Assembly: GCA_028280845.1 (NCBI GenBank)
Contig: JANQKZ010000006.1
Span: 135,512 to 199,511 of the forward strand
Direction: 5' to 3'
DNA length: 64,000 bases
Source of the DNA: Opitutales bacterium
GTDB taxonomy: Bacteria > Verrucomicrobiota > Verrucomicrobiia > Opitutales > JABSRG01
Shown here: positions 6,605 through 30,044 of the stretch, one piece after another
Layout: each line of letters begins with the position of its first letter
Numbering within the stretch: position 1 is the first letter of the stretch
Program-made: the position numbers and the translations under genes
The notes under the pieces: generated by a model
What the model saw: the letters and a program-made list of their open reading frames with translations, nothing else
The model's database searches: none
What the model was told of the DNA's origin: nothing

Positions 6605-6678
6605 ATATCTAGAGCTATAGATTTACGGTTGCAAATCCTTTACCGGCTTACCCTATGGTGTATACCTGAATCACGGTC

Positions 6679-9194: not shown

Positions 9195-9701
9195 ATGCTT
9201 TCTGTTGCAGTCTGCGGTTTGCTCGGCCTTTGGTTCATGGTTTCCTGTTTAAAGCAAACCGCGCTTCCATGGGCATCTCCCCGTTTTCATACATTCAATG
9301 TGTTCGGCTTGTTGCCCAACTGGTCTCTCTTTTCGTCCAATTTTGCCGCTTATAACTACGAGCTCTGTGTACGGTATATTTCAACGGATGGACAATCCGG
9401 CAATTGGATCCCCCTCCCCTCGGGTAGCTCCCGTATTCAAGTTCCGCCGATCTGGAACCCCGAGAGAAGAATAGGAAAAGCCTATTTGGATCTCGCCCTC
9501 AAATTAATTCAACTACGATTACTGAAGAGGGATCACATCCAGTCCAGCCTCCCCTACCTCATCTGCCTGAACATGGCCTCGGCAGCCCCTTCCCCCGCAA
9601 ATGGAAAATCGCTTGAGTTTGGTTTCTTTTTACAGGAAGGCCATAACCGGGGCACCCGGAAGTTGTTCTTTTTATCATCCCGTCACCCGGTGAACCCATG
9701 A
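9195..9701 (+). CDS. Hypothetical protein, possible SdpA-family partner of the downstream HTTM-like protein
   Basis: 168 aa with an N-terminal hydrophobic segment and an LPNWSLFSS...YEL stretch reminiscent of the W-x-F-F/S motif of SdpA-family proteins. The stop overlaps the next start (ATGA). Homology is asserted from memory only. Confidence 0.3.
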   Translation: MLSVAVCGLLGLWFMVSCLKQTALPWASPRFHTFNVFGLLPNWSLFSSNFAAYNYELCVRYISTDGQSGNWIPLPSGSSRIQVPPIWNPERRIGKAYLDLALKLIQLRLLKRDHIQSSLPYLICLNMASAAPSPANGKSLEFGFFLQEGHNRGTRKLFFLSSRHPVNP

Positions 9702-10474
9702 CCGCATTGGATGCATTGGCCTGGGGGCAGACCATTCTGGTCATGGGAATCGTGCTAAGCTCCCTGGAATACCTCGCCCTTAAGCGCTGGTTTGGCGCGG
9801 GAAAGATTTTCAGAGCGATGGCCCCCTCCGGCACGGGAGTGAACAGCTTCTATGCGCTTGCTTTGGTCATGGCGACGCGCGCCCTGGCAGCTGGCCTGCT
9901 CTGCTTTACCCCGATGGATCATATGTTGCGTTCAGGGATCCTCCTCTTCCTGGTTGTAATGACACTCTGGCTTTTCCACCGTATTCCCTTTGGCCAGGAA
10001 GGCGGAGACCAGTTGACCTTGATGGCCCTGGTCCTGCTCTTCATCCAATCCCTGGATTCTCAAAACCTGATGGTCGCTCAGGCCTGCTGTCTGTTTTGGT
10101 CCGGGCAACTGGTACTGGCGTACCTCAAAACGGGCTGGATTAAATTTGCATACTCGGGATGGCGAGATGGGACGTTGTTGCAGTTACTGGGATCCAGCGA
10201 ATTGTACGGGCATCCTTTCTTACACAAAATGGTACAAACCCAAAAAGGGCAAAAAGGGGCGAGAGCTGTCCTTCTTTTTATTGAATGGGGACTTCCGCTG
10301 AGCCTGTTACTTCCCCCAAGTGTATTTTATGTCTTTTTTACACTGGCCCTGCTATTTCATTTCGCCAACGCCGTGTTCCTCGGGTTGGGCGGATTTTTCT
10401 GGGCGATGGCCGCCGTCTTTCCTTCCCTGATTGTGACGCACGGCCTTATTCAGAGGGTCCTCCAGTCGCATTAA
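9698..10474 (+). CDS. Polytopic membrane protein, HTTM/SdpB-like
   Basis: 258 aa with about 6-7 TM helices. The GQEGGDQLTLMALVLLF, QLVLAYLKTGWIKFAYSGWRDGTLL and LALLFHFANAVFLGLG segments fit the HTTM (vitamin-K carboxylase-related, SdpB-type) pattern as I recall it. Confidence 0.4.
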   Translation: MTALDALAWGQTILVMGIVLSSLEYLALKRWFGAGKIFRAMAPSGTGVNSFYALALVMATRALAAGLLCFTPMDHMLRSGILLFLVVMTLWLFHRIPFGQEGGDQLTLMALVLLFIQSLDSQNLMVAQACCLFWSGQLVLAYLKTGWIKFAYSGWRDGTLLQLLGSSELYGHPFLHKMVQTQKGQKGARAVLLFIEWGLPLSLLLPPSVFYVFFTLALLFHFANAVFLGLGGFFWAMAAVFPSLIVTHGLIQRVLQSH

Positions 10475-10478
10475 TCCG

Positions 10479-11396
10479 ATGAAGGAATACTCCGTCAACG
10501 CTGGCCCAAGGGTCCATATCCAGGAATTAGATTCCGGGACCCATGCCGCGTTTAGCCGAATGACGTTTCCCCGGTATCGTTCAAAGGTGACGGAAGTCTG
10601 TCCCACTCATCATCTTCGACTCGCCGCTTTTTCCCGGGATAAACCGATCGGGCTCTTGTTAGGTGAAATAAAAGCCCTATCCCGGGAAATGGAAATTCTG
10701 TCTCTCTTCGTCATTCAGGGAGAGCGGAGGAAGGGAGTCGCCACCGCTTTACTGCAAGAGGCAGAGCGGATTTTAGTCAGGAATAAGGTCAAATCCATGG
10801 CCCTGGTGTTTATGGAAAAGACACAAACCCCACATCCCTTACGCCCCCTCCTGGCCAGTCAGCAATGGAACTCACCGGAAATCCGTATGGTGAGCTGCTT
10901 TTCACCTAAAACCCTCCTGTCCAGGGGCCCCTGGGTGAAGCCATACGTCAACCTGAGTCCGAGGCTAGTGTTGAAAGCCTGGGTAGATTTAACCGCCGAG
11001 GAGCGCAAGTCGGTTTACCGCGAGGATGCTCCAGAAGTGCTCAAGCCAAACCCGAAAGATCGGACCCTGGAACCCGTTTCCAGTATCGTCGTCTTTGAGG
11101 GAAAGCTTCCGATTGGGTGGATGATCAATCACGAGATTGACTCCGACCGAATCCGCTTCTCCCATCTATGGGTAAGATCTGGTATCTCCCCACGACAGTT
11201 GAACGGGATCGCCCTGGTCGGACATTCGATTCATCGTTGGGCGGAATCCCCCGCCTGCCAGGCATTAGTTTTTGCCTCCATGAACTTTCAAGCCCACAAC
11301 CGACCTATGTGGAATTTTTTGACCCGGCACTTAAAACCATATCTAGATGATATTCGCTTCTCCTTTGGGGCTCGCAAAGAACTAACCGAACGATGA
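10479..11396 (+). CDS. GNAT-family acetyltransferase, two-lobed (paralog of 16501..17409)
   Basis: Acetyl-CoA-binding-type segment ILSLFVIQGERRKGVATALLQEAERIL, plus a second C-terminal lobe. The stop overlaps the lanM start (ATGA). Confidence 0.7.
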   Translation: MKEYSVNAGPRVHIQELDSGTHAAFSRMTFPRYRSKVTEVCPTHHLRLAAFSRDKPIGLLLGEIKALSREMEILSLFVIQGERRKGVATALLQEAERILVRNKVKSMALVFMEKTQTPHPLRPLLASQQWNSPEIRMVSCFSPKTLLSRGPWVKPYVNLSPRLVLKAWVDLTAEERKSVYREDAPEVLKPNPKDRTLEPVSSIVVFEGKLPIGWMINHEIDSDRIRFSHLWVRSGISPRQLNGIALVGHSIHRWAESPACQALVFASMNFQAHNRPMWNFLTRHLKPYLDDIRFSFGARKELTER

Positions 11397-14300
11397 AAAT
11401 CGAATCAGCGGATCTGCAGCAGATTGCCTCCCGGGGGCTATTTCTCCACGAAAGGATCGCCCTGAACGAAGCGTTTTCCTCCGCCTCCGAGGCCGAAAAT
11501 CCATCCTCCGTAGAGCGACGGGTTCAAGCATGGAAAAAAGCCGGAGCTGCAGGCCACGAGGATGCCTTCCACCGCCTCCTGCAAAACGATGAGCTCGACG
11601 ATCCGGATTATACCCTCCTCTTCGAAGAATCCCTTCGCCTCAAACCAGAGGCATTTCCCGACTGGGTAAACCGAGGGGAAGCCCTTCTGGAGTCTTACTC
11701 CAAGACAGCGGAACTGACTTTTGATGAACTGGAGGCGAGCCTGCCTTTTCTCAACTCTGATACCCCGGTCGCCTTTGAACACTTGCTTGGCCCCCTGGTC
11801 TGTTTTTTCGCCCGACAGGTGGAGGCGAAATGTCCTAAGCTCCTGAATTGGGTAAGTCACTCGGCATGGAATGAATATCAGCACACCTTCCTGGTCACCC
11901 TTGCCATGATCGGCTCGGAGACCCTTGGTCAGGAGTTCAGTATATTCCGGGCGGTCCGGAAAACGATGCAGGGAAAGTCACCCGGCCGGCAGCCAGGTTC
12001 GAGGGAAATATATGCCGCATTCGTCGACCATCAAAGGCGAGGTAAATTGGTCAAGACCCTGACCCGGTATCCCCTGCTCCTTCGCTATTGGATAAGCACC
12101 GGGTATCAATTCGTCCGTAACGCAGTCACATTCTTCCACCACCTGGAAACCGATTTTGCCGATATTCGGGACGAATTAAACCAAGGTAAATCCCCAGGCA
12201 AAGTGTCCAAGCTCACTCCTGGTATCTCCGATCGTCACGATGGAGGAAAGACCTCGGTCCGCGTTGAATTCGAGGACGGACTTCGGACCATATACAAAGC
12301 AAAATCCCTGGATACCGAGGTGGGATATCATCGGCTGTTGGATTGGTTGAACCAACAAGGCCTCTCTACTCCCCTGAATGGATATCATGTTATTGATAAA
12401 CAGGGACACGGTTGGGTCGAATTTGTCGATGTTCAGGCCTGCCGGAATAAGGAAGAGGTCAAGACCTACTTCACCCGGGGAGGCATGCTCCTCGCTCTTT
12501 TCTACGCCATCGAGGGCAGTGACCTTCATAATGAAAATCTCATCGCTCACGGAGCGCATCCCGTAATCGTCGACTTGGAAACCATCCTCCAGTCTCGTCC
12601 ACGATCCCTGGAGGAAAGGGGTCCCGGCCAGGCTCTCATTCAGGCAAACCAGTTTTTCTACTGGGATTCCGTTTTCCGGACTGCACTTCTGCCCCGTTGG
12701 GAAATAGGGCCTGAAGGACAGAGCTATGACATAAGTGGCCTGGGCGGAGTTCAGGAACACACCACAAGTTTTGTGCAGAAACAGTGGAAACAGATCAACT
12801 CGGACGACATGCAATTAACCCGGCAAACCTTATCGACATCGCCTAACCAGAATGTCGTCCGTTTGAACGGGACGATTCAACTGCCGTCCGATCATCGGGA
12901 AGAACTGCTTCAGGGGTTTCGGGAGATGTATGCCTTGCTTCTGGAGAAGCGGGAGGAGCTCCTGGCACCTGGTGGCCCCCTGCATAGACTGTCCCGGTGC
13001 CCGGTCCGCTTTATTCAGCGCAATACCCGGATCTATGTGACCCTTTTAAGAAAACTGGCTCTGCCTAAAAATCTAACCTTTGGGCCGGATGCCAGCATTG
13101 TGGTCGAATCCCTTGCCCGACCTTTTTTAAGCCTCGACGCACCACACCCTTACTGGCCCCTCGTGAAAGTCGAACGGGAAAATTGTTTTCACCTTGATAT
13201 TCCGCGGTTCATGGCAAATCCGGATTCAGCCGACTTGGAGATTTCCGCTGAAAAAACGCTGCCCGCCTTTTTTGAAGAGCCGGCCTGGGAGCAGGTTCAG
13301 AAACGGTTCAGGACCCTTTCTGAGGCGGATTGCGACCTTCAACAAGCCTTTATCCGATCTTCTTTTGCCAGTACGCCCAGCCAGTCACTCGAGCCACCCC
13401 CAACGGATATCAATCCAACAGCCTGGGAAAATGTGGATCCCCAGGCCTGGGAGGACGAAGCCCTGGAACTCGCAGAAAAAGCCTGCCATGCTGCCATTCG
13501 TTCCTCAGGAAATGAGGTGTCCTGGTTAACTTTGTCCTATTTTGCGGAGGCGCAACGATGGCAGGTCCAACCCATGGCCGCCCGGCTTTACGACGGGCTA
13601 TGTGGTCCCCTGGTCTTTCTCGCTGCGGCTGAGCGCGTATCCGGCGGCTCCCCGGAGTTTCGAGCCACCCTCGAAGGAACCGTGCGATCCATTTCCAGTT
13701 TTCTTCAGGACGCTTATGCTGCGCGATACCTGTTTGAGGCAGGTACGGGAGCAGGTCTGGGAGCTTCCAGCTTGATTTATGCCCTGGTTGTTGCCGGCGC
13801 CTTACTGGAAGATCGCGATACCCTGAACTTGGCTGAAAAATGCGCCTTCTGGGTCGGAGAGGACCAATGTGAGGCCGACCAGCGCAATGATTTATTGGGC
13901 GGCAATGCCGGGGCCGTCTCAGCCTTCCTGGCCCTCCATTCTGTCCGCTCCTCCGGGACCTGGATGGACCGGGCCCTCGCCTGTGGCGATCTCCTGCTGG
14001 GCCAACGGGTCAAGACGGATTCGGGATACCACACCTGGCTGACCTTGGAGAACAAACCACTCCTGGGCTTTTCCCACGGGGCCGCCGGGATCATCATGGC
14101 TTTGAGCCAGCTGGGTGAACAGTCCGGGGAAAGTCGGTACATCGAGGCGGCAGAAGAGGCCCTCGCCTATGAGAATTCATTCTTTGACGAGGAAAAAGGC
14201 AATTGGCCCGACCTGCGCTATCGACAGACCAAAGACGGGTACCACTTTACAAACCGGTGGTGCCATGGTGCGCCCGGGATTGGCTTGGGACGGCTTTACA

Positions 14301-14650
14301 CGCCCTTGCCGGGCTTGGTCGAACAGGATATCCTCCGTGCCTTGGACTGCACGAAATCGCAACCCCTTACTCCCCTGGATCATTTATGTTGCGGGAATCT
14401 TGGCCGAGCCCAGGCCCTTCAAGTGGGGGGACTCCGCACCGGGGACACAAGCCTGGTCCTATCGGCCCAGAAATTGACCCAACAAGTCTACTCCCGGGCC
14501 AGAAACCAAGGGGGTTACGGTCTGGGGCTCGCGCCCGGGCTGGACATTTTTTCCTTTCACCAGGGCCTCGCCGGGATCGGCTATCATTTCCTCTGGATGA
14601 ACCACCTGAACACCTTACCTTGTATCCTCGCATGGGAAACAACACCGTAA
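11393..14650 (+). CDS. lanM: Class II lanthipeptide synthetase (LanM), ProcM-like CCG type
   Basis: 1085 aa. The N-terminal dehydratase region carries the kinase-like loop DLHNENLIAHGAHPVIVDLETI. The C-terminal LanC-like cyclase has GFSHGAAGI, WCHGAPGIGL and DHLCCGNLG. Confidence 0.93.
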   Translation: MKIESADLQQIASRGLFLHERIALNEAFSSASEAENPSSVERRVQAWKKAGAAGHEDAFHRLLQNDELDDPDYTLLFEESLRLKPEAFPDWVNRGEALLESYSKTAELTFDELEASLPFLNSDTPVAFEHLLGPLVCFFARQVEAKCPKLLNWVSHSAWNEYQHTFLVTLAMIGSETLGQEFSIFRAVRKTMQGKSPGRQPGSREIYAAFVDHQRRGKLVKTLTRYPLLLRYWISTGYQFVRNAVTFFHHLETDFADIRDELNQGKSPGKVSKLTPGISDRHDGGKTSVRVEFEDGLRTIYKAKSLDTEVGYHRLLDWLNQQGLSTPLNGYHVIDKQGHGWVEFVDVQACRNKEEVKTYFTRGGMLLALFYAIEGSDLHNENLIAHGAHPVIVDLETILQSRPRSLEERGPGQALIQANQFFYWDSVFRTALLPRWEIGPEGQSYDISGLGGVQEHTTSFVQKQWKQINSDDMQLTRQTLSTSPNQNVVRLNGTIQLPSDHREELLQGFREMYALLLEKREELLAPGGPLHRLSRCPVRFIQRNTRIYVTLLRKLALPKNLTFGPDASIVVESLARPFLSLDAPHPYWPLVKVERENCFHLDIPRFMANPDSADLEISAEKTLPAFFEEPAWEQVQKRFRTLSEADCDLQQAFIRSSFASTPSQSLEPPPTDINPTAWENVDPQAWEDEALELAEKACHAAIRSSGNEVSWLTLSYFAEAQRWQVQPMAARLYDGLCGPLVFLAAAERVSGGSPEFRATLEGTVRSISSFLQDAYAARYLFEAGTGAGLGASSLIYALVVAGALLEDRDTLNLAEKCAFWVGEDQCEADQRNDLLGGNAGAVSAFLALHSVRSSGTWMDRALACGDLLLGQRVKTDSGYHTWLTLENKPLLGFSHGAAGIIMALSQLGEQSGESRYIEAAEEALAYENSFFDEEKGNWPDLRYRQTKDGYHFTNRWCHGAPGIGLGRLYTPLPGLVEQDILRALDCTKSQPLTPLDHLCCGNLGRAQALQVGGLRTGDTSLVLSAQKLTQQVYSRARNQGGYGLGLAPGLDIFSFHQGLAGIGYHFLWMNHLNTLPCILAWETTP

Positions 14651-15561
14651 CACTCAGTGTCCTGGAATTTGGCTACTTGGGCCCCAATCAGGACGCCCGC
14701 CTGCGCCTACAGGCTGTCGTGGACCACGGCCCCGTCTTCGAAGCCATGGGGTTTCATCGATATTGGTTGGCCGAACATCATGAGGCACACTTCGCCTTCG
14801 CCGTGCCGGAACTTATGATCCCCGCAATTGCGGCGAAAACTTCGACCATTCGTTTGGGAACGGCCGGTGTGCTCATGCAATTCCACAGCCCCCTGAGAAT
14901 CGCAGAATCCTTCCGCATGCTCGAAGCCCTCTACCCCGATCGCATCGACTGTGGTGTCGCCTCCGGGGTTACCGCCCATGTCGAGGTCCGCAAAGATCTT
15001 TATCCCGACTTTGACTTGGATCGCGCTATCCGGGATCGCCAATACACCCAGCACGTGGAGCGCCTCATCACCCTGCTGCGGGATGAAGCCCACTACGACC
15101 ATCGCCATTACCGCAGTGTGAGCCCGGCTCGGCAAGCCAGCCCGGCCATCACGCTCCTGGGCGCTGCCCGAGGCAAGGGAAACCAAATCCTGGCCTCCCG
15201 GCACGGGACCGCCTTTTGCTATTCTCTGGCCCATGGTCCCTCCGAACAAGGCCCGGCCATTTGCCAAAGATATCGAGAAAACTTTCAGGCCAGTAAGACC
15301 CTTCAGGAACCCAAGCTACTCATCGCCGCCACCGTCATATGCGCCGAAACCAACGCAAAAGCAGTCGAGTATTTGAATTACTTAAAAGCGATGAACCAGA
15401 CCGTGGGCACAGTGATTATGGGTAACCCGCGATTGTGCCGGGATAAAATACTCCAGCTTTGTGAACAGTTTCAATGCCATGACTTCGTCATCATCCCCAT
15501 GTATCCCAAGGCCCATCAGGTCACAGAAGGCATGGAACGCCTTATGGAGACATTCTCGTAA
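14632..15561 (+). CDS. LLM-class (luciferase-like, group 1) flavin-dependent oxidoreductase
   Basis: LSVLEFGYLGPN...GFHRYWLAEHHEAHFAFAVPELMIPAIAAKTSTIRLGTAGVLMQFHSPLRIAESFRMLEALYPDRIDCGVASG matches the luciferase-family group 1 pattern. The homology starts at the ATG at 14632, which overlaps the lanM end by 19 nt. The ORF-track start at 14203 is an out-of-frame run-in through lanM. Confidence 0.85.
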   Translation: MGNNTVTLSVLEFGYLGPNQDARLRLQAVVDHGPVFEAMGFHRYWLAEHHEAHFAFAVPELMIPAIAAKTSTIRLGTAGVLMQFHSPLRIAESFRMLEALYPDRIDCGVASGVTAHVEVRKDLYPDFDLDRAIRDRQYTQHVERLITLLRDEAHYDHRHYRSVSPARQASPAITLLGAARGKGNQILASRHGTAFCYSLAHGPSEQGPAICQRYRENFQASKTLQEPKLLIAATVICAETNAKAVEYLNYLKAMNQTVGTVIMGNPRLCRDKILQLCEQFQCHDFVIIPMYPKAHQVTEGMERLMETFS

Positions 15562-15596
15562 AAAAAAGCAGGATCGGAAATCCTGCCTTTTGATTT
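15560..15596. terminator. Bidirectional rho-independent terminator between the LLM gene and the precursor operon
   Basis: The A-run at 15560-15567 is followed by the hairpin gcaggat-cggaa-atcctgc at 15568-15586 and then cttttgattt. Read on the minus strand, the hairpin is followed by T8. Confidence 0.75.
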
Positions 15597-15618
15597 AAAC
15601 TGAATGAAGGCCTGGGAA

Positions 15619-15999
15619 CTAGACGCAACCGCCAACCGCGCCCACACCGGGATAACCAATGCTAACGGTTGAGGTCACCGCACAAGAGGCTGCACAGGAT
15701 GCTGCGCACCGCGCGCCCCCTGCTACCTGTTCCAACTCACTATCGGAGAGTTCTTCGTCCTCATCGACAGGCTCATCGAGAATGATATTCACGAGCGCAC
15801 CCTTACCATCGTGAAACTTGACCGAGATCCCATCCGGAACGGGTTTGGCCGATTGCTCCATGATGGCCGCCTGGGGATCGCTCAGGGCTTTTTCTCGAAA
15901 AGCAGCATCGGTACGGGCACGTTCAATGGTGGAACGAAGCAGGTCCTCAATATCACGCGGTTCCCAATTCGGACTAGCCGCACTATCGAAGTCTGACAT
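15619..15999 (-). CDS. NHLP-leader lanthipeptide precursor A1 (core 15622..15714)
   Basis: 126 aa. The leader ...AFREKALSDPQAAIMEQSAKPVPDGISVKFHDGKGALVNIILDEPVDEDEELSDSELEQVAGG fits the nitrile-hydratase-like leader (NHLP) pattern and ends in a double glycine. The core is ARCAASCAASCAVTSTVSIGYPGVGAVGGCV. Confidence 0.88.
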   Translation of the reverse strand: MSDFDSAASPNWEPRDIEDLLRSTIERARTDAAFREKALSDPQAAIMEQSAKPVPDGISVKFHDGKGALVNIILDEPVDEDEELSDSELEQVAGGARCAASCAASCAVTSTVSIGYPGVGAVGGCV

Positions 16000-16001
16000 G
16001 A

Positions 16002-16334
16002 CTAGAATCCTTGACTGACGACACAGCTAGCGGCGCAACTGCCTCCGCAACGATTTCCGTCTCCGACACCCCCTGCTACTTGCTCCAATTCGCTGTCACT
16101 CAATTCTTCGGCGACAGGATCAGGCAGGACAAAGGTAAAGGTAGCTCCAGCGTTATCCACGAAGCGGATAGAAACACCTTCCGGAATGGGTTTATCCGTG
16201 AATTTTGCGATGGCCGCATGGGGATCTGACATTGCGAGTTCGCGTAATTCGGGATCAGTGCTTGATTTTGCTAGAAGTTCGGAAGCAACTTCGTTAATTG
16301 AATCTTCGGTCCAGGGTCCGGGATCGATGGCCAT
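16002..16334 (-). CDS. NHLP-leader lanthipeptide precursor A2 (core 16005..16067)
   Basis: 110 aa. The leader is ...ELRELAMSDPHAAIAKFTDKPIPEGVSIRFVDNAGATFTFVLPDPVAEELSDSELEQVAGG and the core is VGDGNRCGGSCAASCVVSQGF. Its stop lies 2 nt upstream of the A1 start, and an AAGGA Shine-Dalgarno for A1 sits inside its last codons. Confidence 0.88.
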   Translation of the reverse strand: MAIDPGPWTEDSINEVASELLAKSSTDPELRELAMSDPHAAIAKFTDKPIPEGVSIRFVDNAGATFTFVLPDPVAEELSDSELEQVAGGVGDGNRCGGSCAASCVVSQGF

Positions 16335-16500: not shown

Positions 16501-17409
16501 ATGCCTAATATAGGGTCTATCCCCGATCCCCGCCTGGTGGACTTGGAAGACCTGCGGGCCCTTCGATATCGCTCCTTCACCTTTCCGACTCATGCCAATC
16601 TGCTCTCCCAGACAGAGAGACCGGAAGTCGTGGCTATCGGGTTGGAACGGGCAGGACGACCCATCGGCCTGGGACTCGGGATGCGGGGAAACAGTGAAGC
16701 CTATTCCGGTGACATCCTGTCGCTGGCCGTGGCTGCCGAATATCGAACCCAAGGCTACGGCAGTGCGCTCCTCAATCGTTTGGAGTGCCGCCTTCAGCAA
16801 AAGGGGGCCTGCTTTGCCAGCCTACAGTACATGTCCCACCAGAAGAGCACCCCTTATCTGGAACGCATGCTTCGTTCCGCTGGTTGGGAAGAGCCAGTCC
16901 ATCGGCAATTGTTCTGTGCCTCCACCTACACAAGGATTCTAAAGGCCCCCTGGATGCGCTTCAGAACCCTGCCGGACGGCTTCGAGACCTTTTCCTGGCC
17001 TGCAGGACTTCAAGATTCGGAATGGAAACGACTGACTGGCGAAGGTGGGCGAGCGTCCTGGTTCCCGGAATTGTTAAATCCCTTGCATAGCGTGGAAGAC
17101 ATCGATGGAGAAAATAGCCTGGGATTGCGGTTTCGGGGGGACCTGGTCGGATGGCTGATCGCTTTCCGGATTGCCCCGACGACCGTCCGCTATCAAAAAC
17201 TCTTTATCAAGGATGAATTCCAGAAACAGGGATTGGCGATTCGACTCCTGGCGATGGGGATTTATCCCCTGCCCTCCACTGGGGTCGACTCCGCGGTCTG
17301 GGATGTGATCCCCACTAGCAAGAATATGCTCAATTTTGTTGAGCGGGGTTTGCGACCCTACTGCACAGAATACAAATGGTCGATGGGAGCCATCAAACGG
17401 TTTTCCTGA
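16501..17409 (+). CDS. GNAT-family acetyltransferase, two-lobed (paralog of 10479..11396)
   Basis: ILSLAVAAEYRTQGYGSALLNRLECRL GNAT core. The segment STPYLERMLRSAGWEEP...APWMRFR aligns by eye with TPHPLRPLLASQQWNSP...GPWVKPY of the other GNAT. I prefer the ATG at 16501; the ORF track opens at a TTG at 16441. Confidence 0.7.
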   Translation: MPNIGSIPDPRLVDLEDLRALRYRSFTFPTHANLLSQTERPEVVAIGLERAGRPIGLGLGMRGNSEAYSGDILSLAVAAEYRTQGYGSALLNRLECRLQQKGACFASLQYMSHQKSTPYLERMLRSAGWEEPVHRQLFCASTYTRILKAPWMRFRTLPDGFETFSWPAGLQDSEWKRLTGEGGRASWFPELLNPLHSVEDIDGENSLGLRFRGDLVGWLIAFRIAPTTVRYQKLFIKDEFQKQGLAIRLLAMGIYPLPSTGVDSAVWDVIPTSKNMLNFVERGLRPYCTEYKWSMGAIKRFS

Positions 17410-17425
17410 TTTCCCCACATAGTCC

Positions 17426-18355
17426 ATGGATCCGATACCTCTCATAATCCTGGAAGAGCACCACGAGGCATTTTATACCCTGGTCGCAGCCAAAAAGAAG
17501 GGGTGGCTGGGGGATCAGCCGTACGCCCTCCTTCATGTCGATGAACATTCAGACATGTCGCTTCCTCGCTTGAGACATCCCCTTCCCCGGAAGCGTGACC
17601 CGATAGAAACCTGGATTCGATTTACCTACAATGAGCTGGATATCGGGAATTTCATTTGGCCCCTGGTCTATTTAGGTCATTTGGACTCGGTCACCTGGTT
17701 TCGCTTCCAACACAAAAAGGCAGTCACACCCCGGCATCTCGAAATATGCACCACGGATGACCGGGGGCTGGAATTTATGACGGCCGGATCTCTGGATCAG
17801 ACCGCTTATCGAAACCGACCCGACCGACGCTCCCTCCGCTATGAAACCCGTTCACCTGGCGAAAGCTACGCACCCGACGGCCCGTGGATCTTAAGTATCG
17901 ACGAGGATTTTATTGCCGCCAACCCCTTTCCAAAGATAGAGGATCGGGTGATCGAAATCACGGAAGCCAGTTACCATGCCTTTCTCCGGGATCCATACCA
18001 TTTTCTCAGGATTTCACCGGGCTCCAAGCCGAGTGTATTTGTAAAAGATAAGCGATATTTCTTAAATTTTAACGATCTTCCTTCCTCCGGAGTAACCGAT
18101 TCCTTACAAGTACTGGATTTATCGCCTCGTTATGAAACCCTCAACACCCTTTTGAAGGGAATTCGCCGGCCTCCTGAGTTGATTATGCTTTGCCGCTCGT
18201 TAAAAAGTGGTTACCTGCCTATAACGCTTTTCCCCTCCATTGAAGCACGCTTGTTGCGAGACCTCAGCCATTGCTATCCCACCCAACTTATTCGGGTACA
18301 CGAAATCATCCCCGACTCTGTGAAAGTCGAATACGCCTTTTACCCCAATGATTGA
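17426..18355 (+). CDS. UPF0489-like protein (arginase/ureohydrolase-related fold suspected)
   Basis: The N-terminus PLIILEEHHEAFYTL...ALLHVDEHSDMSLP resembles UPF0489 (PF12640). The motifs EEHHE, HVDEHSD and LSIDEDFIAANP resemble the ureohydrolase metal-binding signatures (GGDHS, DAHxD, SxDxDxxDP). Confidence 0.5.
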   Translation: MDPIPLIILEEHHEAFYTLVAAKKKGWLGDQPYALLHVDEHSDMSLPRLRHPLPRKRDPIETWIRFTYNELDIGNFIWPLVYLGHLDSVTWFRFQHKKAVTPRHLEICTTDDRGLEFMTAGSLDQTAYRNRPDRRSLRYETRSPGESYAPDGPWILSIDEDFIAANPFPKIEDRVIEITEASYHAFLRDPYHFLRISPGSKPSVFVKDKRYFLNFNDLPSSGVTDSLQVLDLSPRYETLNTLLKGIRRPPELIMLCRSLKSGYLPITLFPSIEARLLRDLSHCYPTQLIRVHEIIPDSVKVEYAFYPND

Positions 18356-19310
18356 AGACCACTCCTCGGGAACCACATCCGCCATCGTGCCTCCCTATCC
18401 CCTACCCTTTGAAGCGATAGAGCGGAGGGACGGTCTGTCTCCTGAAGTTTTCCAGGAACGCTATGAAAGCGGAATGCGCCGCCCGGTCGTGGTGACCGAC
18501 GCCATGCAGGAATGGCCTGCCTGGGGAAAGTGGGGGTTTGATTTTTTCGCGAAACAGTATGGAGAAGAACGCGTCGTCGTCACCAACCGCCTGTCCGGGG
18601 CCACGGCCGCCCGGCGGATAAAGATGGGAGATTTCATTACCTATTGTCAGTTTCCTGCCTTCAGTCCCCTTTCCAAAAACGAGACGGATACCCCCTTTTA
18701 CCTGACCTCATTTTCTCCCTTCGTAGACCACCCCGAGCTCTACGGAGACTTTGAGGATCCCTACTTTCTGAGTAACCTCTACCGGTCTCTCGAGGGTCCC
18801 CTGGGCGATTGGTATAAACAAGGCTTCGGCTGGATTTTTATTGGACCTGCGGGAACCCTCTCCCCTCTCCATCTCGATCTTTTTGGAACCCATGCCTGGC
18901 TGGCCCAATTTCATGGGCGGAAGCGCTTCCTTCTGTTCCCGAAAACAGACTTCCCCTACGTCTACGATGGTCGGCCTGATTTTATTAACCCGGATCTCAA
19001 GGCCTTTCCGGACCTCGCCAAGACCCGACCGGTCCTGGCCATCCTCGAGCCTGGGGAAGTCATTTATATCCCAGAGGGATGGGCTCATCATGTGGTCTCA
19101 TTAGATCCCTCCATATCCCTCACATTTAACTTCGTGGACGCCAGTAATGCCGTCGACCATGTGATGGCCATCACCCGCGACTTGCCAAACTGGGTGAACA
19201 AAACCGGAACTGATTCCTTTAAGCAGGCAAACCGGGTATACTGGACCCAGGCGGAGTTCAGTTTTCCTGGCCAGGATGACAACAATGGGAAGGAAGAAGG
19301 TTCTCACTGA
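18348..19310 (+). CDS. JmjC / cupin_8 Fe(II)/2-oxoglutarate-dependent oxygenase
   Basis: WIFIGPAGTLSPLHLDLFGTHAWLAQFHGRKRFLLFP ... IYIPEGWAHHVVSLDPSISLTFNF gives an HxD...H facial triad on a cupin fold, typical of JmjC-only hydroxylases. The start overlaps the upstream stop by 8 nt. Confidence 0.8.
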   Translation: MIEDHSSGTTSAIVPPYPLPFEAIERRDGLSPEVFQERYESGMRRPVVVTDAMQEWPAWGKWGFDFFAKQYGEERVVVTNRLSGATAARRIKMGDFITYCQFPAFSPLSKNETDTPFYLTSFSPFVDHPELYGDFEDPYFLSNLYRSLEGPLGDWYKQGFGWIFIGPAGTLSPLHLDLFGTHAWLAQFHGRKRFLLFPKTDFPYVYDGRPDFINPDLKAFPDLAKTRPVLAILEPGEVIYIPEGWAHHVVSLDPSISLTFNFVDASNAVDHVMAITRDLPNWVNKTGTDSFKQANRVYWTQAEFSFPGQDDNNGKEEGSH

Positions 19311-19311
19311 T

Positions 19312-20955
19312 ATGCATATAGCCAGGATTCAGCCTGCTCGCTTGCTATCCCGAATCTCACCTTGGATCATCCTTCTGGCGTGGTCCTGTACGGGAGTCGG
19401 CCAAGCGCGGAACGACCCGAATCCCCTGCAGATTGATCGTTCGATCCCGGCTCCGGATGATCTTCCCCAGTCCAGATTGGTCGGGCCCACGGCTCCTCCC
19501 GGGCCGTTGACCCTCGAAGATGTGATCCGAATCAGTCTGGAGTCCAATGTGGAGATCCTCGTTCGCCAAGAGGACGTCATCATCGCGGACGCCCAACTGC
19601 AGCAGGTCTCTTCCGTGTTTAACCCGCAGATTGACGCCACCCTGGATAGCAACGAAACCCGGGTGAACTCCGCGCTCTCGACCGCTCCGGAAGATCTTTT
19701 TATTTCCGAGTCGGAAACGTCCACCTACTCTCTCGCCGTCACCAAAACCTTCCGCAGCGGGATTTCTCTCACCCCCAGCCTGGAATACGATTTATCTGCA
19801 TCCAATACGGACGGATTGGTGCCTTCCAACCGCGGCATCTGGCAACTGAACATCACGGTTCCCTTACTGAAAGGATTCGGCAGAATCGCCACAGCTGGAA
19901 AGGAGCTGGCGGCCCAGAAAAATGTAGAAGCCGTGCAGTTTGCCTATGAGCATACACTGTCCGAGCAACTCTCCCTGGTCGTCGCGGCTTACTGGAGTTA
20001 CCTCTCGGCCGCCCGAAATCTCGATATTCTTCAAAGGGCAGAACAGCGGGGCGAACTGCTCCTCCGACAGACCGAAGCCCTGATCGAGGCAAATCAACTG
20101 CCTGCCGCCGAAATCAGTAAATCCCAGGCCGATTTATCCGCCCGCCGCGCTGACCGCTCCAGGGGAGAACTCAGCCTCTTTTCGGCTAGGCGCAACTTGG
20201 GGCTCCTCATGGGACTATCCAAAGAAACGGTCACTACCCTAACGGAACCCTCCACCCCGTTCACGATTGTCCCCCCGGTAGACCCAACTTCCCTCCTTGA
20301 TCAAAGTGAACGCTACGTCGATTTGGCTCTGCAACAACGCCGGGATTTACAAGCTGCGGCTGGACAGACTAAGGCGACTGAGGTGTTGAGAAAGCAAGCC
20401 GAAGCCCTGGATAAAATCCAGGTCGACTTCACCTTGGGGGTTGGCTATTCGGGCTATTCCCCAGGGCGTTCTTTCAGCGCCAAACCGGAATCCTTTTACC
20501 GGCATCTCGAAGGGCCCAGTTATGAGGCGACCTTCAACATCGGTTGGGGCTGGAATCGCAACCTCGAAAAAGGAACCTTGCGCGAACGGCTCTCCCGGGA
20601 AGCCCAGGCCCGCTATGCGGAAGTCCAGCTGGAACGCGAGATCTACTCCGGGGTGATCCGAGCCTTAGAAAACTTGAGGACCGCTTCCCTCACCCTGGAA
20701 GAATCTAACAAGGCTCAACTGCTTTTCCAGAAATCGCTCGAATTAGAGGCTCAAAAGCTCCAGTTGGGCCAAGCTACCATTATTGATGTCATCAACCTGC
20801 AGGAACGCCTGACCCAGGCGGAACTCGAGTTGACTCAGGCTCAGCTTCAATACGTCAATGCCATCGTCGAGCTTCGTTTTCAAACCGGAACCCTCCTGAA
20901 TCTACAGGAGGATATGTTTCAATTAAACCAGGATGCCCTGACGACCCTCCCCTAG
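19312..20955 (+). CDS. TolC-family outer-membrane efflux protein
   Basis: Signal-like N-terminus, LTLEDVIRISLESNVEILVRQEDV... and two long coiled-coil repeat halves typical of OEP/TolC. The ATG at 19312 lies 1 nt after the JmjC stop; the track start at 19276 overlaps it. Confidence 0.85.
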   Translation: MHIARIQPARLLSRISPWIILLAWSCTGVGQARNDPNPLQIDRSIPAPDDLPQSRLVGPTAPPGPLTLEDVIRISLESNVEILVRQEDVIIADAQLQQVSSVFNPQIDATLDSNETRVNSALSTAPEDLFISESETSTYSLAVTKTFRSGISLTPSLEYDLSASNTDGLVPSNRGIWQLNITVPLLKGFGRIATAGKELAAQKNVEAVQFAYEHTLSEQLSLVVAAYWSYLSAARNLDILQRAEQRGELLLRQTEALIEANQLPAAEISKSQADLSARRADRSRGELSLFSARRNLGLLMGLSKETVTTLTEPSTPFTIVPPVDPTSLLDQSERYVDLALQQRRDLQAAAGQTKATEVLRKQAEALDKIQVDFTLGVGYSGYSPGRSFSAKPESFYRHLEGPSYEATFNIGWGWNRNLEKGTLRERLSREAQARYAEVQLEREIYSGVIRALENLRTASLTLEESNKAQLLFQKSLELEAQKLQLGQATIIDVINLQERLTQAELELTQAQLQYVNAIVELRFQTGTLLNLQEDMFQLNQDALTTLP

Positions 20956-20992
20956 GTCTGATGAAACACACTATGATGAAAGGTTGGCTGAC

Positions 20993-22249
20993 ATGGATCC
21001 CATGAAGAAAATTTTCAGGCAAAAATCGCTCGATAAAATCTCGTCTCCCGAGCGCCTGGACGAACTCATGCAGGTTACGAGTCCCCGCCTCTGGATAGCC
21101 CTGCTTACCCTGGGGATCCTCCTGGCCTTTACTCTGGTCTGGGGCGTATTCGGGAGAATCCCCCAAAAGGTTCACGGTCGGGGCATCCTGATCAAAACTG
21201 AGGGACTCTACACCGTGACCACTGAAGGGGCCGGACGGGTTGTGGAAATCTCAGTCAAACCCGGAGAATCCATCGAGACGGGACAGCACATAGCCCGGGT
21301 GGAAGACCCGAATATGCAAAAATTAATCAAAGACGGAAAGGCAAATCTAGCCCGCCTGCAGGAAGTCCACAACACACTCGTCGAGTTCAACCACCGTGAA
21401 GTGAAACTCAAACAGGAATCCATTGATAGGCAGAAAGTCGGCCTGGAAAACACTTTGGATTCGCTGAATCGTAAGGCGTCCTACTTGAAGGAACAACTGA
21501 AGACATTTGACAAACTCTTGGAGGAAGGACTCGTCACCACCAAAACGCGACAACAAACCAACCTCGAAATTCTTCAAGTCGAACTGCAGATCGAGGAAAA
21601 CCACAACAAAATCAGTAACCTGGTGTTGGCCCGGGAGGAAGTGGAAAGCCAGTCGACTCAAGAGATTCAACAATCACAAACTCAGTTGGAGACAGAGCGG
21701 CGTCGGTTAGAGGAACAGGAATTAGCTTACGAGAGAGAAGCCGCCGTGGTCTCCCCCTATTCCGGGAATGTCCTGGAAGTACTCGTCGACCAGCACCAGT
21801 TAGTTGGAGTGGGGAATTCCGTCATCAATTTGGAGTTAACCGGACAGGATTTGACTGTGAGCTTCTTCATCCCTGACACGGAAGGGAAGAAGGTTCGCGA
21901 GGGCTCAGTAATCCAGGTATCCCCGACCACCGTAAAAAAAGAACGCTACGGCGTGCTGCTCGGCGAAGTTGTCAGTATTTCGGAGTTTCCGGCGACCCCT
22001 GTCTTCATGATGCATATCCTTCAGAACAAGGAACTCGTTCATGAAATGGCCCAGACTGGTGATCAATTTGCCGGCGTAGCCTCCATCCAGAAAGATAGCA
22101 ACACCCCGAGCGGGTTTCGATGGTCCTCCGCCCAAGGCCCACCCAAGCAATTATACGCCGGGACGATTTGCGAAGTGAGTGTCGTGACCGAAGAGACGCC
22201 CCCCATCTCCCTCGTCATTCCCTTCCTCCGAAAGCTGTTCGGTTTATAA
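20993..22249 (+). CDS. HlyD-type membrane fusion protein, NHLM bacteriocin-system secretion protein type
   Basis: FRQKSLDKISSPERLDELMQVTSPRLWIALLTLGILL N-terminus, a long coiled coil and a C-terminal beta-barrel region, as in TIGR03794-type adaptors. First ATG at 20993; the track opens at a TTG at 20984. Confidence 0.82.
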   Translation: MDPMKKIFRQKSLDKISSPERLDELMQVTSPRLWIALLTLGILLAFTLVWGVFGRIPQKVHGRGILIKTEGLYTVTTEGAGRVVEISVKPGESIETGQHIARVEDPNMQKLIKDGKANLARLQEVHNTLVEFNHREVKLKQESIDRQKVGLENTLDSLNRKASYLKEQLKTFDKLLEEGLVTTKTRQQTNLEILQVELQIEENHNKISNLVLAREEVESQSTQEIQQSQTQLETERRRLEEQELAYEREAAVVSPYSGNVLEVLVDQHQLVGVGNSVINLELTGQDLTVSFFIPDTEGKKVREGSVIQVSPTTVKKERYGVLLGEVVSISEFPATPVFMMHILQNKELVHEMAQTGDQFAGVASIQKDSNTPSGFRWSSAQGPPKQLYAGTICEVSVVTEETPPISLVIPFLRKLFGL

Positions 22250-22253
22250 GCCC

Positions 22254-24464
22254 ATGGCGGATTCAGACACAACACAGCCAGATTTTAAGCCGTCTATGGT
22301 GAAGAAAAAGCGGAGGATCAAGACCCCTTCGGTTCTTCAAATGGAGGCCGTGGAGTGTGGAGCTGCCTCCCTGTCCATGATTCTAGGTCATTACCATTAC
22401 CGGGAATCGCTGGAGCGCCTTCGGGTCGAGTGTGGAGTTACCCGGGACGGCAGCAAAGCCAGCAACTTGCTCAAGGCGGCCCGCCGCTATGGCTTGAACG
22501 CAAAAGGCTACCGGAAAGAGCCGCAGCAGTTGGCAGATATGCCCCTCCCCATGGTGGTATTCTGGAATTTTAATCACTTCCTCGTCCTGGAAGGTTTCGG
22601 TTCCAAGTGGGTTTATTTAAATGATCCGGCCACCGGTCCCCGCAAGGTAACTTATGCCGAGTTTGACGACAGCTTTACAGGAGTCGCGCTGACCTTCGAA
22701 CCGGGTGAAGACTTTAAAGCAGGCGGAGAAAAACCCAGCTTCATCAACTCCCTGAGAAGACGCCTCCGGGGATCCGAGCTAGGACTCGGCTTCCTAGTAT
22801 TAGCCACGCTCTTTCTGGTCATCCCGGGACTGGTTGTTCCAGCCTTCAGCAAAATATTTATCGACCAGATTCTGATTATGGGCAGGCAGGAATGGCTGCG
22901 TCCCCTCCTGCTGGCCATGATCATTGCTCTTGGTATCCAGACGACTTTATTTTATCTGCAAAAACAGTCGCTTCGCCGCCTCGAAGTCAAGTTGGCCATC
23001 AAGATGTCGAGTGAGTTTTTCAGGCGAGTCCTCAGCCTGCCGGTTCAATTCTTCCAGCAGCGCTTTGCCGGGGAGATTGCCAACCGGGTTGCCCTCAATG
23101 ATCGAATTGCCCAATTACTATCCGGAGAGCTGGCCACCAATACCGTCGGTTTAGGCCTACTGGTGTTTTACGGCTCAGTGATGCTGCTCTACGACTGGGT
23201 ACTTGCCCTGGTCGCCATCGGGGTCGCAGCCAGCAATCTCGTTGTCCTGAAATTCATCTCCCGCAAGCGGAGGGACATCAACGCCCGCCTCTTACAGGAT
23301 CAAGGCAAACTGGCGGGCTCTACCATGGCCGGCCTCCAGATTATAGAAAGCCTGAAAGCCAGCGGAACAGAGGGGAATTTCTTTTCTCAATGGGCCGGCT
23401 ACCAGGTCAAATTTCTGAACGGAATGCAGGGTCTTGGCGTAACCAACCAACTGCTCGCGGTTCTGCCTACTACCCTGCAGGCATTCAACACTGCATTGAT
23501 CCTGGGCCTGGGCGGGTATCGAGTCATGGAAGGTGTCCTCAGCATGGGAGACTTGGTGGCCTTTCAGGTCCTGATGGGCAACTTCACCAAACCGGTTAAT
23601 GAGTTTGTCAAGCTGGGCAGCTCACTCCAGGAAGTGGATGGCAATCTCAAGCGCCTGGACGATGTCCTCAAAAACAAACCCGTAGTTGAGTTTATCGAGC
23701 CCGAAAGCAAACCGGATGCCGGGGACATGAAGGTTCCGATCGAAATGACGGGGCTGGTGGACATCCGCAACCTTTCCTTTGGGTATTCTCCGTTGGATCC
23801 TCCCTTTATCGATAACTTTAACCTTACGGTGCGACCGGGAGAACGGGTGGCTCTGGTAGGTCCCTCCGGATGCGGGAAGTCGACCCTCGCGAAAATTGTC
23901 AGCGGCCTCTACGATCCCTGGACGGGTGAAATCCTCTTCGATGGATTTGCCCGGAGCGAGTATCCCCGCCATTTGTTTACCGACTTCTTCGCCGCGGTGG
24001 ACCAGGATATCTTTCTTTTTGACGGCACCATCAGAGACAACCTCACCCTATGGGACAAAACGGTTTCCCAGCAGGATATGATCTTCGCCTGCAAGGACGC
24101 CTGCATTCATGACATCATTTCCGAGCGATCCGGAGCTTATGAAGGTGTCGTGGCAGAAGGAGGGAGAAACTTCAGCGGGGGGCAACGCCAACGCCTGGAA
24201 ATTGCCCGGGCCTTAATCAGGAACCCGCGGGTCCTCATCCTCGACGAAGCGACCAGCGCCCTCGATCCGGCGACCGAACGCCAGATCGATGAGAATCTGC
24301 GGAGGCGTGGATGCTCCTGTATCATTATTGCCCACCGCCTGAGTACCATTCGGGACTGTGATCAGATCCTGGTGCTCCAACGCGGCAAAGTCGTTCAACA
24401 TGGAGATCACAACAGCCTGATGATGGAGCAGGACGGCATCTACGCCAATTTGGTCAACCTCTAA
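22254..24464 (+). CDS. Bacteriocin ABC transporter with N-terminal C39 peptidase (NHLM peptidase/ATP-binding type)
   Basis: The C39 domain has its catalytic Cys in LQMEAVECGAASLSMILGHY and its His in NFNHFLVLEG. It has a 6-TM domain, Walker A GPSGCGKST, signature FSGGQRQRLEIARAL and Walker B VLILDEATSALD. Confidence 0.9.
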   Translation: MADSDTTQPDFKPSMVKKKRRIKTPSVLQMEAVECGAASLSMILGHYHYRESLERLRVECGVTRDGSKASNLLKAARRYGLNAKGYRKEPQQLADMPLPMVVFWNFNHFLVLEGFGSKWVYLNDPATGPRKVTYAEFDDSFTGVALTFEPGEDFKAGGEKPSFINSLRRRLRGSELGLGFLVLATLFLVIPGLVVPAFSKIFIDQILIMGRQEWLRPLLLAMIIALGIQTTLFYLQKQSLRRLEVKLAIKMSSEFFRRVLSLPVQFFQQRFAGEIANRVALNDRIAQLLSGELATNTVGLGLLVFYGSVMLLYDWVLALVAIGVAASNLVVLKFISRKRRDINARLLQDQGKLAGSTMAGLQIIESLKASGTEGNFFSQWAGYQVKFLNGMQGLGVTNQLLAVLPTTLQAFNTALILGLGGYRVMEGVLSMGDLVAFQVLMGNFTKPVNEFVKLGSSLQEVDGNLKRLDDVLKNKPVVEFIEPESKPDAGDMKVPIEMTGLVDIRNLSFGYSPLDPPFIDNFNLTVRPGERVALVGPSGCGKSTLAKIVSGLYDPWTGEILFDGFARSEYPRHLFTDFFAAVDQDIFLFDGTIRDNLTLWDKTVSQQDMIFACKDACIHDIISERSGAYEGVVAEGGRNFSGGQRQRLEIARALIRNPRVLILDEATSALDPATERQIDENLRRRGCSCIIIAHRLSTIRDCDQILVLQRGKVVQHGDHNSLMMEQDGIYANLVNL

Positions 24465-24467
24465 GCC

Positions 24468-30040: not shown

Positions 30041-30044
30041 GGAC

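Follow-up and report, generated by a model that had tools for sequence, protein, structure and literature searches.

To our knowledge, selidamides are a recent addition to the peptide natural products, and only three of their pathways have been reconstituted, with products that each bear a single acyl group and between one and four rings. Here we analysed a 64,000-nucleotide stretch (the window) of an Opitutales bacterium contig (JANQKZ010000006.1, positions 135,512 to 199,511 of the forward strand), in which two small genes, A1 and A2, encode peptides whose cores share the tandem motif R-(C-x-x-S/T)x3. Gene content, conservation of the cores and comparison with related loci lead us to propose that the region at ~7.9-27.4 kb is probably a phaeornamide-like selidamide cluster that makes two lipolanthipeptides, each with three separate four-residue rings of reversed direction.

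The closest described pathway is encoded by the pha cluster of Pseudophaeobacter arcticus (Hubrich et al. 2022), which has been reconstituted and comprises a precursor whose leader peptide is of the nitrile hydratase-like type (NHLP), the arginase PhaR, the Fe/2-oxoglutarate hydroxylase PhaI, the GNAT PhaN, the LanM PhaM and a peptidase-ABC exporter (PMC8784127). In phaeornamide, Arg2 is converted to ornithine and then to 4-hydroxyornithine, which is N-delta-acylated with 3-hydroxydecanoate, and this acylation depends on the arginase step; nevertheless, the PhaA R2K and KspA R1K mutants retain acylation (PMC8784127). The acylated residue is core residue 2 (hydroxyornithine) in phaeornamide and core residue 1 in kamptornamide (PMC8784127). 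The ring of phaeornamide is a four-residue methyllanthionine (MeLan) ring between Cys4 and Thr7, which corresponds to one C-x-x-T unit in which the Cys is the N-terminal partner (PMC8784127).

The two precursor genes of the window are adjacent on the reverse strand:

15619-15999, minus strand: precursor A1, long type, 126 amino acids (aa), with an NHLP leader (TIGR03793 at 8.4e-13) and a Gly-Gly (GG) site
16002-16334, minus strand: precursor A2, short type, 110 aa, with an NHLP leader (TIGR03793 at 3.7e-12) and a GG site

In both precursors the leader terminates in ELEQVAGG. The core of A1, ARCAASCAASCAVTSTVSIGYPGVGAVGGCV (31 aa; 15622-15714, minus strand), contains four Cys and six Ser/Thr, and the A2 core, VGDGNRCGGSCAASCVVSQGF (21 aa; 16005-16067, minus strand), contains three Cys and three Ser. 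The R-(C-x-x-S/T)x3 motif is present in both, as RCAASCAASCAVT in A1 (translated from 15673-15711, minus strand) and as RCGGSCAASCVVS in A2 (16014-16052, minus strand). The single core Arg is located at position 2 of A1 and position 6 of A2, and A1 has spare residues beyond the array, namely S15, T16, S18 and Cys30. An earlier reading of this DNA (hereafter the sequence-only reading) had given the same open reading frames (ORFs), coordinates, core sequences and numbers of Cys and Ser/Thr, all of which we reproduced from the DNA. It had also taken A1 and A2 for LanM substrates with NHLP leaders, in agreement with the family matches of the LanM and of the leaders. The leaders scored 48.0 (A1) and 45.9 bits (A2) against TIGR03793 (nitrile hydratase alpha-related), with a cutoff of 50.9 bits, and gave weak NHase_alpha matches; although formally below the threshold, the assignment to the NHLP type is biologically convincing. 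A1 and A2 are probably real precursors of a selidamide-type ribosomal lipopeptide.

The tandem motif is far above chance expectation. Across all six reading frames of the window, the pattern [RK]-C-x2-[ST]-C-x2-[ST]-C-x2-[ST] was matched at two places, namely the A1 and A2 cores, compared with a mean of 0.0 occurrences in 200 shuffles (0.015 when the R/K is omitted). Protein searches returned 36 relatives for the A1 query and 21 for the A2 query. In the 36-sequence alignment, R97, C98, C102, A104, S105 and C106 are conserved to at least 90%, and leader identity drops to ~40%. Database proteins pooled with peptides from fetched loci gave 63 distinct family cores, the great majority of which (57) have three units, with two units in three cores and four units in another three. 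The residue preceding the first array Cys is Arg in 54 cores, Lys in 7 and another residue in 2. A Ser/Thr is found at +3 of 188 of the 189 array Cys (99%), a count that is partly circular because the array had been defined by C-x-x-[ST], and at -1, -5 and +7 of 67, 33 and 79% of the array Cys, respectively. The sequence-only reading had left room for a lack of conservation of the C-x-x-S spacing among homologous precursors; the spacing is conserved.

Codon comparison with the closest related locus, L007 from an Opitutaceae metagenome-assembled genome (MAG), yielded 23 synonymous and 0 non-synonymous differences in the A1 core and 13 synonymous and 1 non-synonymous differences in the A2 core, compared with 33 synonymous and 36 non-synonymous differences in the A1 leader. 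The cores are under strong purifying selection. The A1-type tail is more plastic than the C-x-x-S array: the extra tail Cys is lost in P0023-P0025, and two Cys are gained in L009, L028 and P0027. Hosts of the family include MAGs labelled Opitutaceae, Vicinamibacteria, Caulobacteraceae and Bryobacteraceae, in addition to many metagenomes, and cores with the motif were found in Verrucomicrobiota, Acidobacteriota and Alphaproteobacteria.

The genes that point to a lipidated product flank the precursors on the opposite strand:

10479-11396, plus strand: GNAT1 acyltransferase, 305 aa (PF00583, 6e-8), the stop of which overlaps the LanM start
16501-17409, plus strand: GNAT2 acyltransferase, 302 aa (PF00583, 6e-13), predicted side-chain fatty acyltransferase
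17426-18355, plus strand: OspR-like peptide arginase (PF12640/UPF0489, 3.2e-12), expected to yield ornithine from the core Arg
18348-19310, plus strand: JmjC/Cupin_8 Fe(II)/2-oxoglutarate hydroxylase (PF13621, 3.3e-28; PF08007, 1.5e-6)

The arginase matched OspR (PDB 8BRP) at 3.4e-34, with its EEH, DEHSD and IDED stretches aligned with OspR motifs. The binuclear Mn site of OspR is formed by His12, Asp39, His41, Asp43, Asp165 and Asp167, which are part of DXHXD and related motifs (PMC10028609). The protein of the window keeps all six Mn ligands and the adjacent Glu, and it looks active; it appears to be a member of the peptide arginase family outside the FlmR/OhkR subgroup of NF052474. A tblastn search with the arginase against plasmids gave no match. 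The hydroxylase aligned with the lysyl hydroxylase JMJD6 (4e-22) with the HxD...H motif kept, and it is predicted to be a PhaI analogue that hydroxylates ornithine.

GNAT1 and GNAT2 are full-length paralogues (23% identity, E 5e-18), and a second GNAT is also encoded in L004/L006, L007, L028 and L030. The listed ORF of GNAT2 begins at TTG 16441, and the likely start is ATG 16501, which matches the 302-aa database copy P0054. A protein search with GNAT2 returned 9 matches, PhaN and KspN not among them, and the comparison of GNAT2 with the PDB gave no informative solved relative. The nearest outgroup homologue is the GNAT of a Chamaesiphon NHLP-LanM-Cupin-GNAT cluster. The order GNAT-arginase-Cupin right after the precursors is kept in L004-L008, L027 and the P0020 contig.

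Presence of the arginase follows the residue in front of the array. Wherever R-cores were accompanied by sufficient flanking sequence, an arginase gene was found (the window, L004-L008, L010, L027, L028 and the P0020 contig). L030 (JAESFR010000035.1, 7831-18663) encodes six K-cores, e.g. YGNKCGGSCGASCGVSL, together with a LanM, two GNATs and two tandem luciferase-like monooxygenases (LLMs), and no arginase, hydroxylase or transporter genes were found within 10 kb on either side; the cluster is complete, with uvrB on one border and a stretch without a large ORF on the other. The Chamaesiphon cluster has a K1 core and is without arginase, and L001 has three K-cores on a contig too short to judge the presence of an arginase. 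In L010 (Bryobacteraceae), the Cys-free cores ARNNNNNIKPL are accompanied by a GNAT and an arginase and the LanM is absent. Across these loci, the Arg goes with the arginase/GNAT lipidation cassette and the C-x-x-S array with the LanM. Because arginase, hydroxylase and GNAT genes neighbour the precursors and because R or K covaries with the arginase, the core Arg is the predicted lipidation site. The sequence-only reading had included the Arg in its motif, and the Arg is indeed conserved, but it had overlooked the role of this residue and of the neighbouring genes. The computed mass of the A2 core after loss of three H2O and conversion of Arg to hydroxyornithine is 1892.760 Da before acylation and would be, for instance, 2062.891 Da with a 3-hydroxy-C10 acyl group.

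Some related loci encode other kinds of cores. L030 has six or seven diverse precursors, and one core, DLKIAGGGTIKTEDLKRSALFR, is without any Cys. Very short Cys-free NHLP cores, ARNNNNNIKPL and RNNNNNNVKPPSTS, are encoded at 8253-9182 of L010 (Bryobacteraceae MAG), where ABC export genes adjoin, and a further Cys-free NHLP core, VNRNNVNL (P0051), is present on 32 contigs labelled Candidatus Sulfotelmatobacter. Such Cys-free short cores may be minimal linear Asn-rich lipo-ornithine peptides.

The predicted ring-forming enzyme is encoded upstream of the precursors:

11393-14650, plus strand: class II lanthipeptide synthetase LanM (TIGR03897, 750.7 bits, cutoff 304)

The protein contains the domains DUF4135 (PF13575, 2e-104) and LANC_like (PF05147, 1e-44). 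Its HLCCGNLG stretch aligned with SLCHGLIG of LicM2 (PDB 6ST5), placing CCG where LicM2 has CHG, and the CCG motif is present in six family LanMs (the window, L001, L007, L008, L009 and L028). By this alignment, the zinc site is of the three-Cys (CCG) type of the ProcM clade. LanMs of this clade, recognisable from a zinc site of three Cys, form rings in either direction, and three of the four rings of the nostolysamides have the Cys N-terminal (bioRxiv 10.64898/2026.01.31.703028). The same direction is found in both landornamide rings, Cys2-Ser7 and Cys10-Thr14. The sequence-only reading had called such ring topology non-canonical, which was overstated, because the direction is already established in landornamide, the nostolysamides and other ProcM-clade products.

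It was right, however, that canonical rings from a dehydroalanine (Dha) at position i to a downstream Cys are inadequate for the array: only 9 of the 63 family cores have a Ser/Thr N-terminal to the first Cys. The arrays are invariably Cys-first and Ser/Thr-last, and the short-type peptides have Cys and Ser in a 1:1 ratio. Because the number of units varies from two to four, the order is strict, Cys and Ser are equal in number in the short peptides and the first Cys is without a possible upstream partner, independent ring modules are favoured over interlocked rings. Each C-x-x-S/T unit would most likely close its own reversed four-residue ring. Of the two topologies offered by the sequence-only reading, the one in which a Cys stands at the N-terminal side of each of three successive four-residue rings is better supported, with the Cys4-Thr7 ring of phaeornamide as precedent, and interlocked i->i+5 rings are disfavoured.

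The remaining genes of the cluster and an element between two of them are as follows:

7867-9183, plus strand: S41-family peptidase (PF03572, 1.2e-9)
9195-9701, plus strand: conserved protein of 168 aa with an N-terminal hydrophobic anchor or signal (hydrophobic segment 1-20; no Pfam match)
9698-10474, plus strand: conserved multi-pass membrane protein of 258 aa (no Pfam match; weak SdpB-like NCBIfam match, 0.0049)
14632-15561, plus strand: LLM flavin oxidoreductase, luciferase-like, MsnO8 subfamily (TIGR03558, 181.6 bits, cutoff 166.95; PF00296)
15568-15586, no strand: terminator-like GC hairpin bordered by runs of A and of T, separating the LLM gene from the convergent A1 gene
19276-20955, plus strand: outer-membrane factor (OEP) of the export module
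20984-22249, plus strand: HlyD-type adaptor of the export module
22254-24464, plus strand: C39-peptidase ABC transporter for export and leader cleavage
24468-27443, plus strand: second ABC transporter of the export module

The genes from the S41 peptidase to the LLM form a plus-strand operon that is convergent with the precursors, and the genes from GNAT2 to the export module are divergent from them. A sigma-70-like promoter was sought near the A1 and A2 genes and none was found. The export module (19276-27443) is conserved in L004-L010 and L027. Most of the related clusters encode a homologue of the S41 peptidase (L007, L027, L028, L004 and the P0020 contig), and the enzyme possibly serves second-step trimming or immunity. 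A link between this peptidase and the N-terminal core extension (VGDGN etc.) was considered and dropped: no correlation was found, as L030 has extensions without S41 and L028 has S41 with a one-residue extension. The genes for the 168-aa and 258-aa proteins overlap, and homologues of both are located beside LanM/GNAT1 in L004, L006, L007 and L027. As a pair, they are candidates for immunity or a further modification, with the 258-aa membrane protein a candidate immunity or export accessory protein.

The LLM gene starts at ATG 14632, with a 19-nt overlap with the 3' end of the LanM gene (the listed ORF began at TTG 14203), and the nearest PDB entry of its product is 4US5 (3.5e-29). Besides the window, L007, L028 and the P0020 contig have this gene, and L030 has two copies. 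No LLM was found in L004/L006 and L008, which retain the motif, and the L027 contig ends too soon to judge. Because clusters without the LLM keep the motif, the LLM appears to be a recurrent accessory tailoring enzyme. LxmJ (LanJC) is an F420H2-dependent LLM of the MSMEG_4879 family that reduces Dha (PMC8068269). An assignment of the LLM to this reductase type was rejected, as it scored 24.5 bits against TIGR03564 (cutoff 234.25) and its best family is MsnO8/TIGR03558. In L004 (GCA_013328875.1), two radical-SAM genes of ~650 aa and a DUF7005 gene (4735-6681 and 13098-16328) take the place of the LLM, with the same layout in the Vicinamibacteria MAG locus L006, and a DUF7005 gene is also found beside the Chamaesiphon GNAT cluster (L031, 9288-10460). 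The radical-SAM and DUF7005 genes of L004/L006 may encode alternative tailoring enzymes.

Outside the cluster (0-7.8 kb and 27.5-64 kb), the window encodes unrelated housekeeping functions. A glycosyltransferase gene at 6679-7842 was discarded as a cluster member, as it has no homologue in any related locus. The right end of the cluster is adjoined by a trio of genes (27507-30569, minus strand) for an ATP-grasp protein (ATPgrasp_ST), an inactive transglutaminase-7TM fusion and a putative Zn protease (PF05618); these have no counterpart in related loci and are probably unrelated to the cluster of this peptide made by ribosomes and modified after translation (RiPP). A gene at 44458-47271 (plus strand) encodes an MMPL/RND-type transporter of 937 aa with a C-terminal cyclic-nucleotide-binding domain, an unusual fusion.

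The genes, motifs, conservation and covariations were observed here; from them we infer the following chemical steps, together with how the rings are connected, which kind of acyl chain is attached and how the products act. Both NHLP precursors would be bound via their leaders. The peptide arginase would turn the single core Arg (position 2 in A1, position 6 in A2) into ornithine, which the JmjC/Cupin enzyme would hydroxylate and to whose side-chain amine a ~300-aa GNAT would attach a fatty acyl group. Largely independently of these steps, the CCG LanM would dehydrate the Ser/Thr of each unit and add the Cys located three residues upstream, giving three consecutive non-overlapping four-residue lanthionine or MeLan rings with the Cys N-terminal. 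In A1, Cys30 probably closes a further large ring onto a spare dehydro residue. The C39-ABC/HlyD/OEP module would then cleave after Gly-Gly and export both peptides, and the LLM, the second GNAT and the S41 peptidase would contribute further tailoring. The products are likely membrane-active.

Most of the weight that is left beside this reading falls on an unchanged pathway with a different arrangement of rings, which would overlap or interlock, e.g. through Dha(i)->Cys(i+5) pairing together with long rings of reversed direction or through Cys(i)-Dha(i+7) pairing. ProcM-clade enzymes make such rings under the control of the substrate, and nostolysamide has three of them at its C-terminus; moreover, three Cys and three Ser allow six perfect matchings, and a Ser/Thr is also found at +7 of 79% of the array Cys. 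The i->i+5 pairing, however, can be used by the third and fourth Cys only, in line with the 33% of Ser/Thr at -5, the variation between two and four units in strict Cys-first, Ser-last order fits independent modules, and in the closest pathway the only ring to have been solved spans one C-x-x-T unit; we consider overlapping rings unlikely. A peptide with fewer rings than units would result if some Ser of the motif were dehydrated and then reduced to D-Ala by a LanJ-like LLM, or if thioethers were oxidised. The LLM gene is translationally coupled to the LanM gene and recurs in five related clusters, LxmJ provides a Dha reductase of the LLM family, and the Ser/Thr of A1 exceed its Cys by two. 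A precedent for thioether oxidation is the LLM GarO, which reportedly S-oxidises actagardine. Against this, the scores place the LLM in the MsnO8/FMN subfamily (181.6 bits) and not in the F420-dependent MSMEG_4879 family (24.5 bits versus a cutoff of 234), L004/L006 and L008 lack it and yet keep the motif, and Cys and Ser are equal in number in the short peptides; we consider this outcome quite improbable.

Finally, A1 and A2 might be an ordinary prochlorosin-like LanM/NHLP pair without lipid, in which the Arg is merely charged and the GNAT, arginase and hydroxylase act elsewhere. This was the implicit view of the sequence-only reading; acylation is read here from genes, GNATs are common and some of them serve in resistance. 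Nevertheless, the GNAT-arginase-hydroxylase genes follow the precursors at once in an order conserved over three phyla, the choice between R and K follows whether an arginase is encoded, conservation of the Arg at its position exceeds 85%, and the same gene set was experimentally shown to lipidate PhaA. An unlipidated pair therefore seems very improbable.

Several points nevertheless weigh against the proposed lipolanthipeptides with separate rings. Each of the steps of dehydration, cyclisation, deguanidination, hydroxylation and acylation is inferred, and the pathway accounts for neither GNAT1 nor the LLM, the S41 peptidase or the pair of conserved proteins. The leader scores of A1 and A2 are slightly below the NHLP cutoff (48.0 and 45.9 versus 50.9 bits), the arginase reaches 164 bits (5e-48) against NF052474 with a cutoff of 350 bits, and the putative assignment of the GNATs to the selidamide type was made by family and gene context. 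As for the rings, in addition to the circular part of the +3 count, other perfect Cys-Ser matchings are combinatorially possible, e.g. Cys(i)-Dha(i+7) or overlapping rings, and the ring pattern of ProcM-type enzymes is substrate-controlled and hard to predict. The functional weight of the lipid is also uncertain, as nostolysamide activity did not need lipidation.

The two precursors recur together. Long (A1-like) and short (A2-like) cores co-occur in the window, L001, L004/L006, L007, L008, L009, L027 and L028, and both types are present in every related cluster with sufficient sequence. This co-occurrence backs a conserved two-peptide system, as the sequence-only reading had suggested with its two-component pair. 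We tentatively go one step further: (C-x-x-S)n could be a new scaffold in which two to four reversed lanthionine rings are joined contiguously, head-to-tail, and abut a fatty-acylated hydroxyornithine, made as an obligatory long/short pair in Gram-negative soil and freshwater bacteria, with the MsnO8-type flavoenzyme adding a reaction new to the subfamily (e.g. S-oxidation or Dha reduction). This is possible, but we hold it with less than even confidence.

The locus defines a widespread and strongly conserved subfamily, with more than 60 distinct cores from Verrucomicrobiota, Acidobacteriota, Alphaproteobacteria and metagenomes, in which the arginase/hydroxylase/GNAT cassette is joined to a conserved peptide pair and to a compact array of predicted rings built from repeats. 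If the predicted structure is correct, it would offer a "stapled" lipopeptide scaffold that is modular and genetically encoded, of use in the engineering of lipopeptide mimics, as well as a clean test, set by nature, of ring-direction control by CCG-type LanMs and a source of uncharacterised tailoring enzymes (the second GNAT, the LLM and the S41 peptidase). The covariation of R or K with the arginase would provide a simple genomic rule to predict acylation sites.

A full-text literature search for these cores returned no relevant paper, although they may be listed in the supplementary precursor tables of PMC8784127, which include Acidobacteria. A search on arginase/GNAT lanthipeptides in Verrucomicrobia and Acidobacteria returned the paper of Hubrich et al. 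alone (PMC8784127), and the follow-up literature on peptide arginases and RiPP acyltransferases that we searched did not mention either group.

Compared by gene families and description, the locus matches the PhaA/N/R/I/M/T set of phaeornamide. The acceptor Arg is at core position 2 in phaeornamide and in A1, and the four-residue, Cys-N-terminal Cys4-Thr7 ring resembles the C-x-x-S/T units described here. Phaeornamide has one precursor and one ring, whereas the present locus has two precursor types, three tandem units (two to four in the family) and an extra C-terminal Cys in A1. The Arg here stands immediately before the first Cys, the hosts are Verrucomicrobiota and Acidobacteriota, and additional genes encode another GNAT, the LLM, the S41 peptidase and the two uncharacterised proteins that are conserved in related clusters.

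Both other arginase-containing systems come from Kamptonema sp. PCC 6506. Kamptornamide (ksp) is likewise an NHLP/proteusin lanthipeptide with a peptide arginase, but its acyl-ornithine is at core residue 1, it has one nine-residue canonical ring (Thr11-Cys19), and it has neither a hydroxylase nor a tandem C-x-x-S array. Landornamide (osp) shares the arginase (OspR) and the Cys-N-terminal rings, but its pathway is without a GNAT, uses a radical-SAM epimerase and has no tandem C-x-x-S array. The nostolysamides and prochlorosins have in common with our locus the three-Cys CCG site of the LanM, with rings formed in both directions. Lys1 of nostolysamide is acylated by a GNAT without an arginase, which likens it to the relatives with K-cores, L030 and L001, although the L001 contig is too short to judge. 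These systems differ in their Nif11 leaders, in overlapping rings and in the range of substrates, one for NpuM and many hypervariable ones for ProcM, whereas two strongly conserved core types are found here.

The two-peptide lantibiotics cytolysin and bicereucin are each made from two precursors by one LanM. As in the present locus, two different, co-conserved precursors are encoded beside a single LanM; however, these lantibiotics come from Firmicutes and are not known to be lipidated or to be made with an arginase or GNAT, and the pairing in our family is one of co-occurrence. Overall, the selidamide mechanism, the gene content of the pha type and the ring direction are known already, and the predicted chemistry is not of a new kind. 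The locus departs from the pha type in its tandem array and long/short pair, in the genes for another GNAT, the LLM, the S41 peptidase and the two uncharacterised proteins, and in its taxonomic range.

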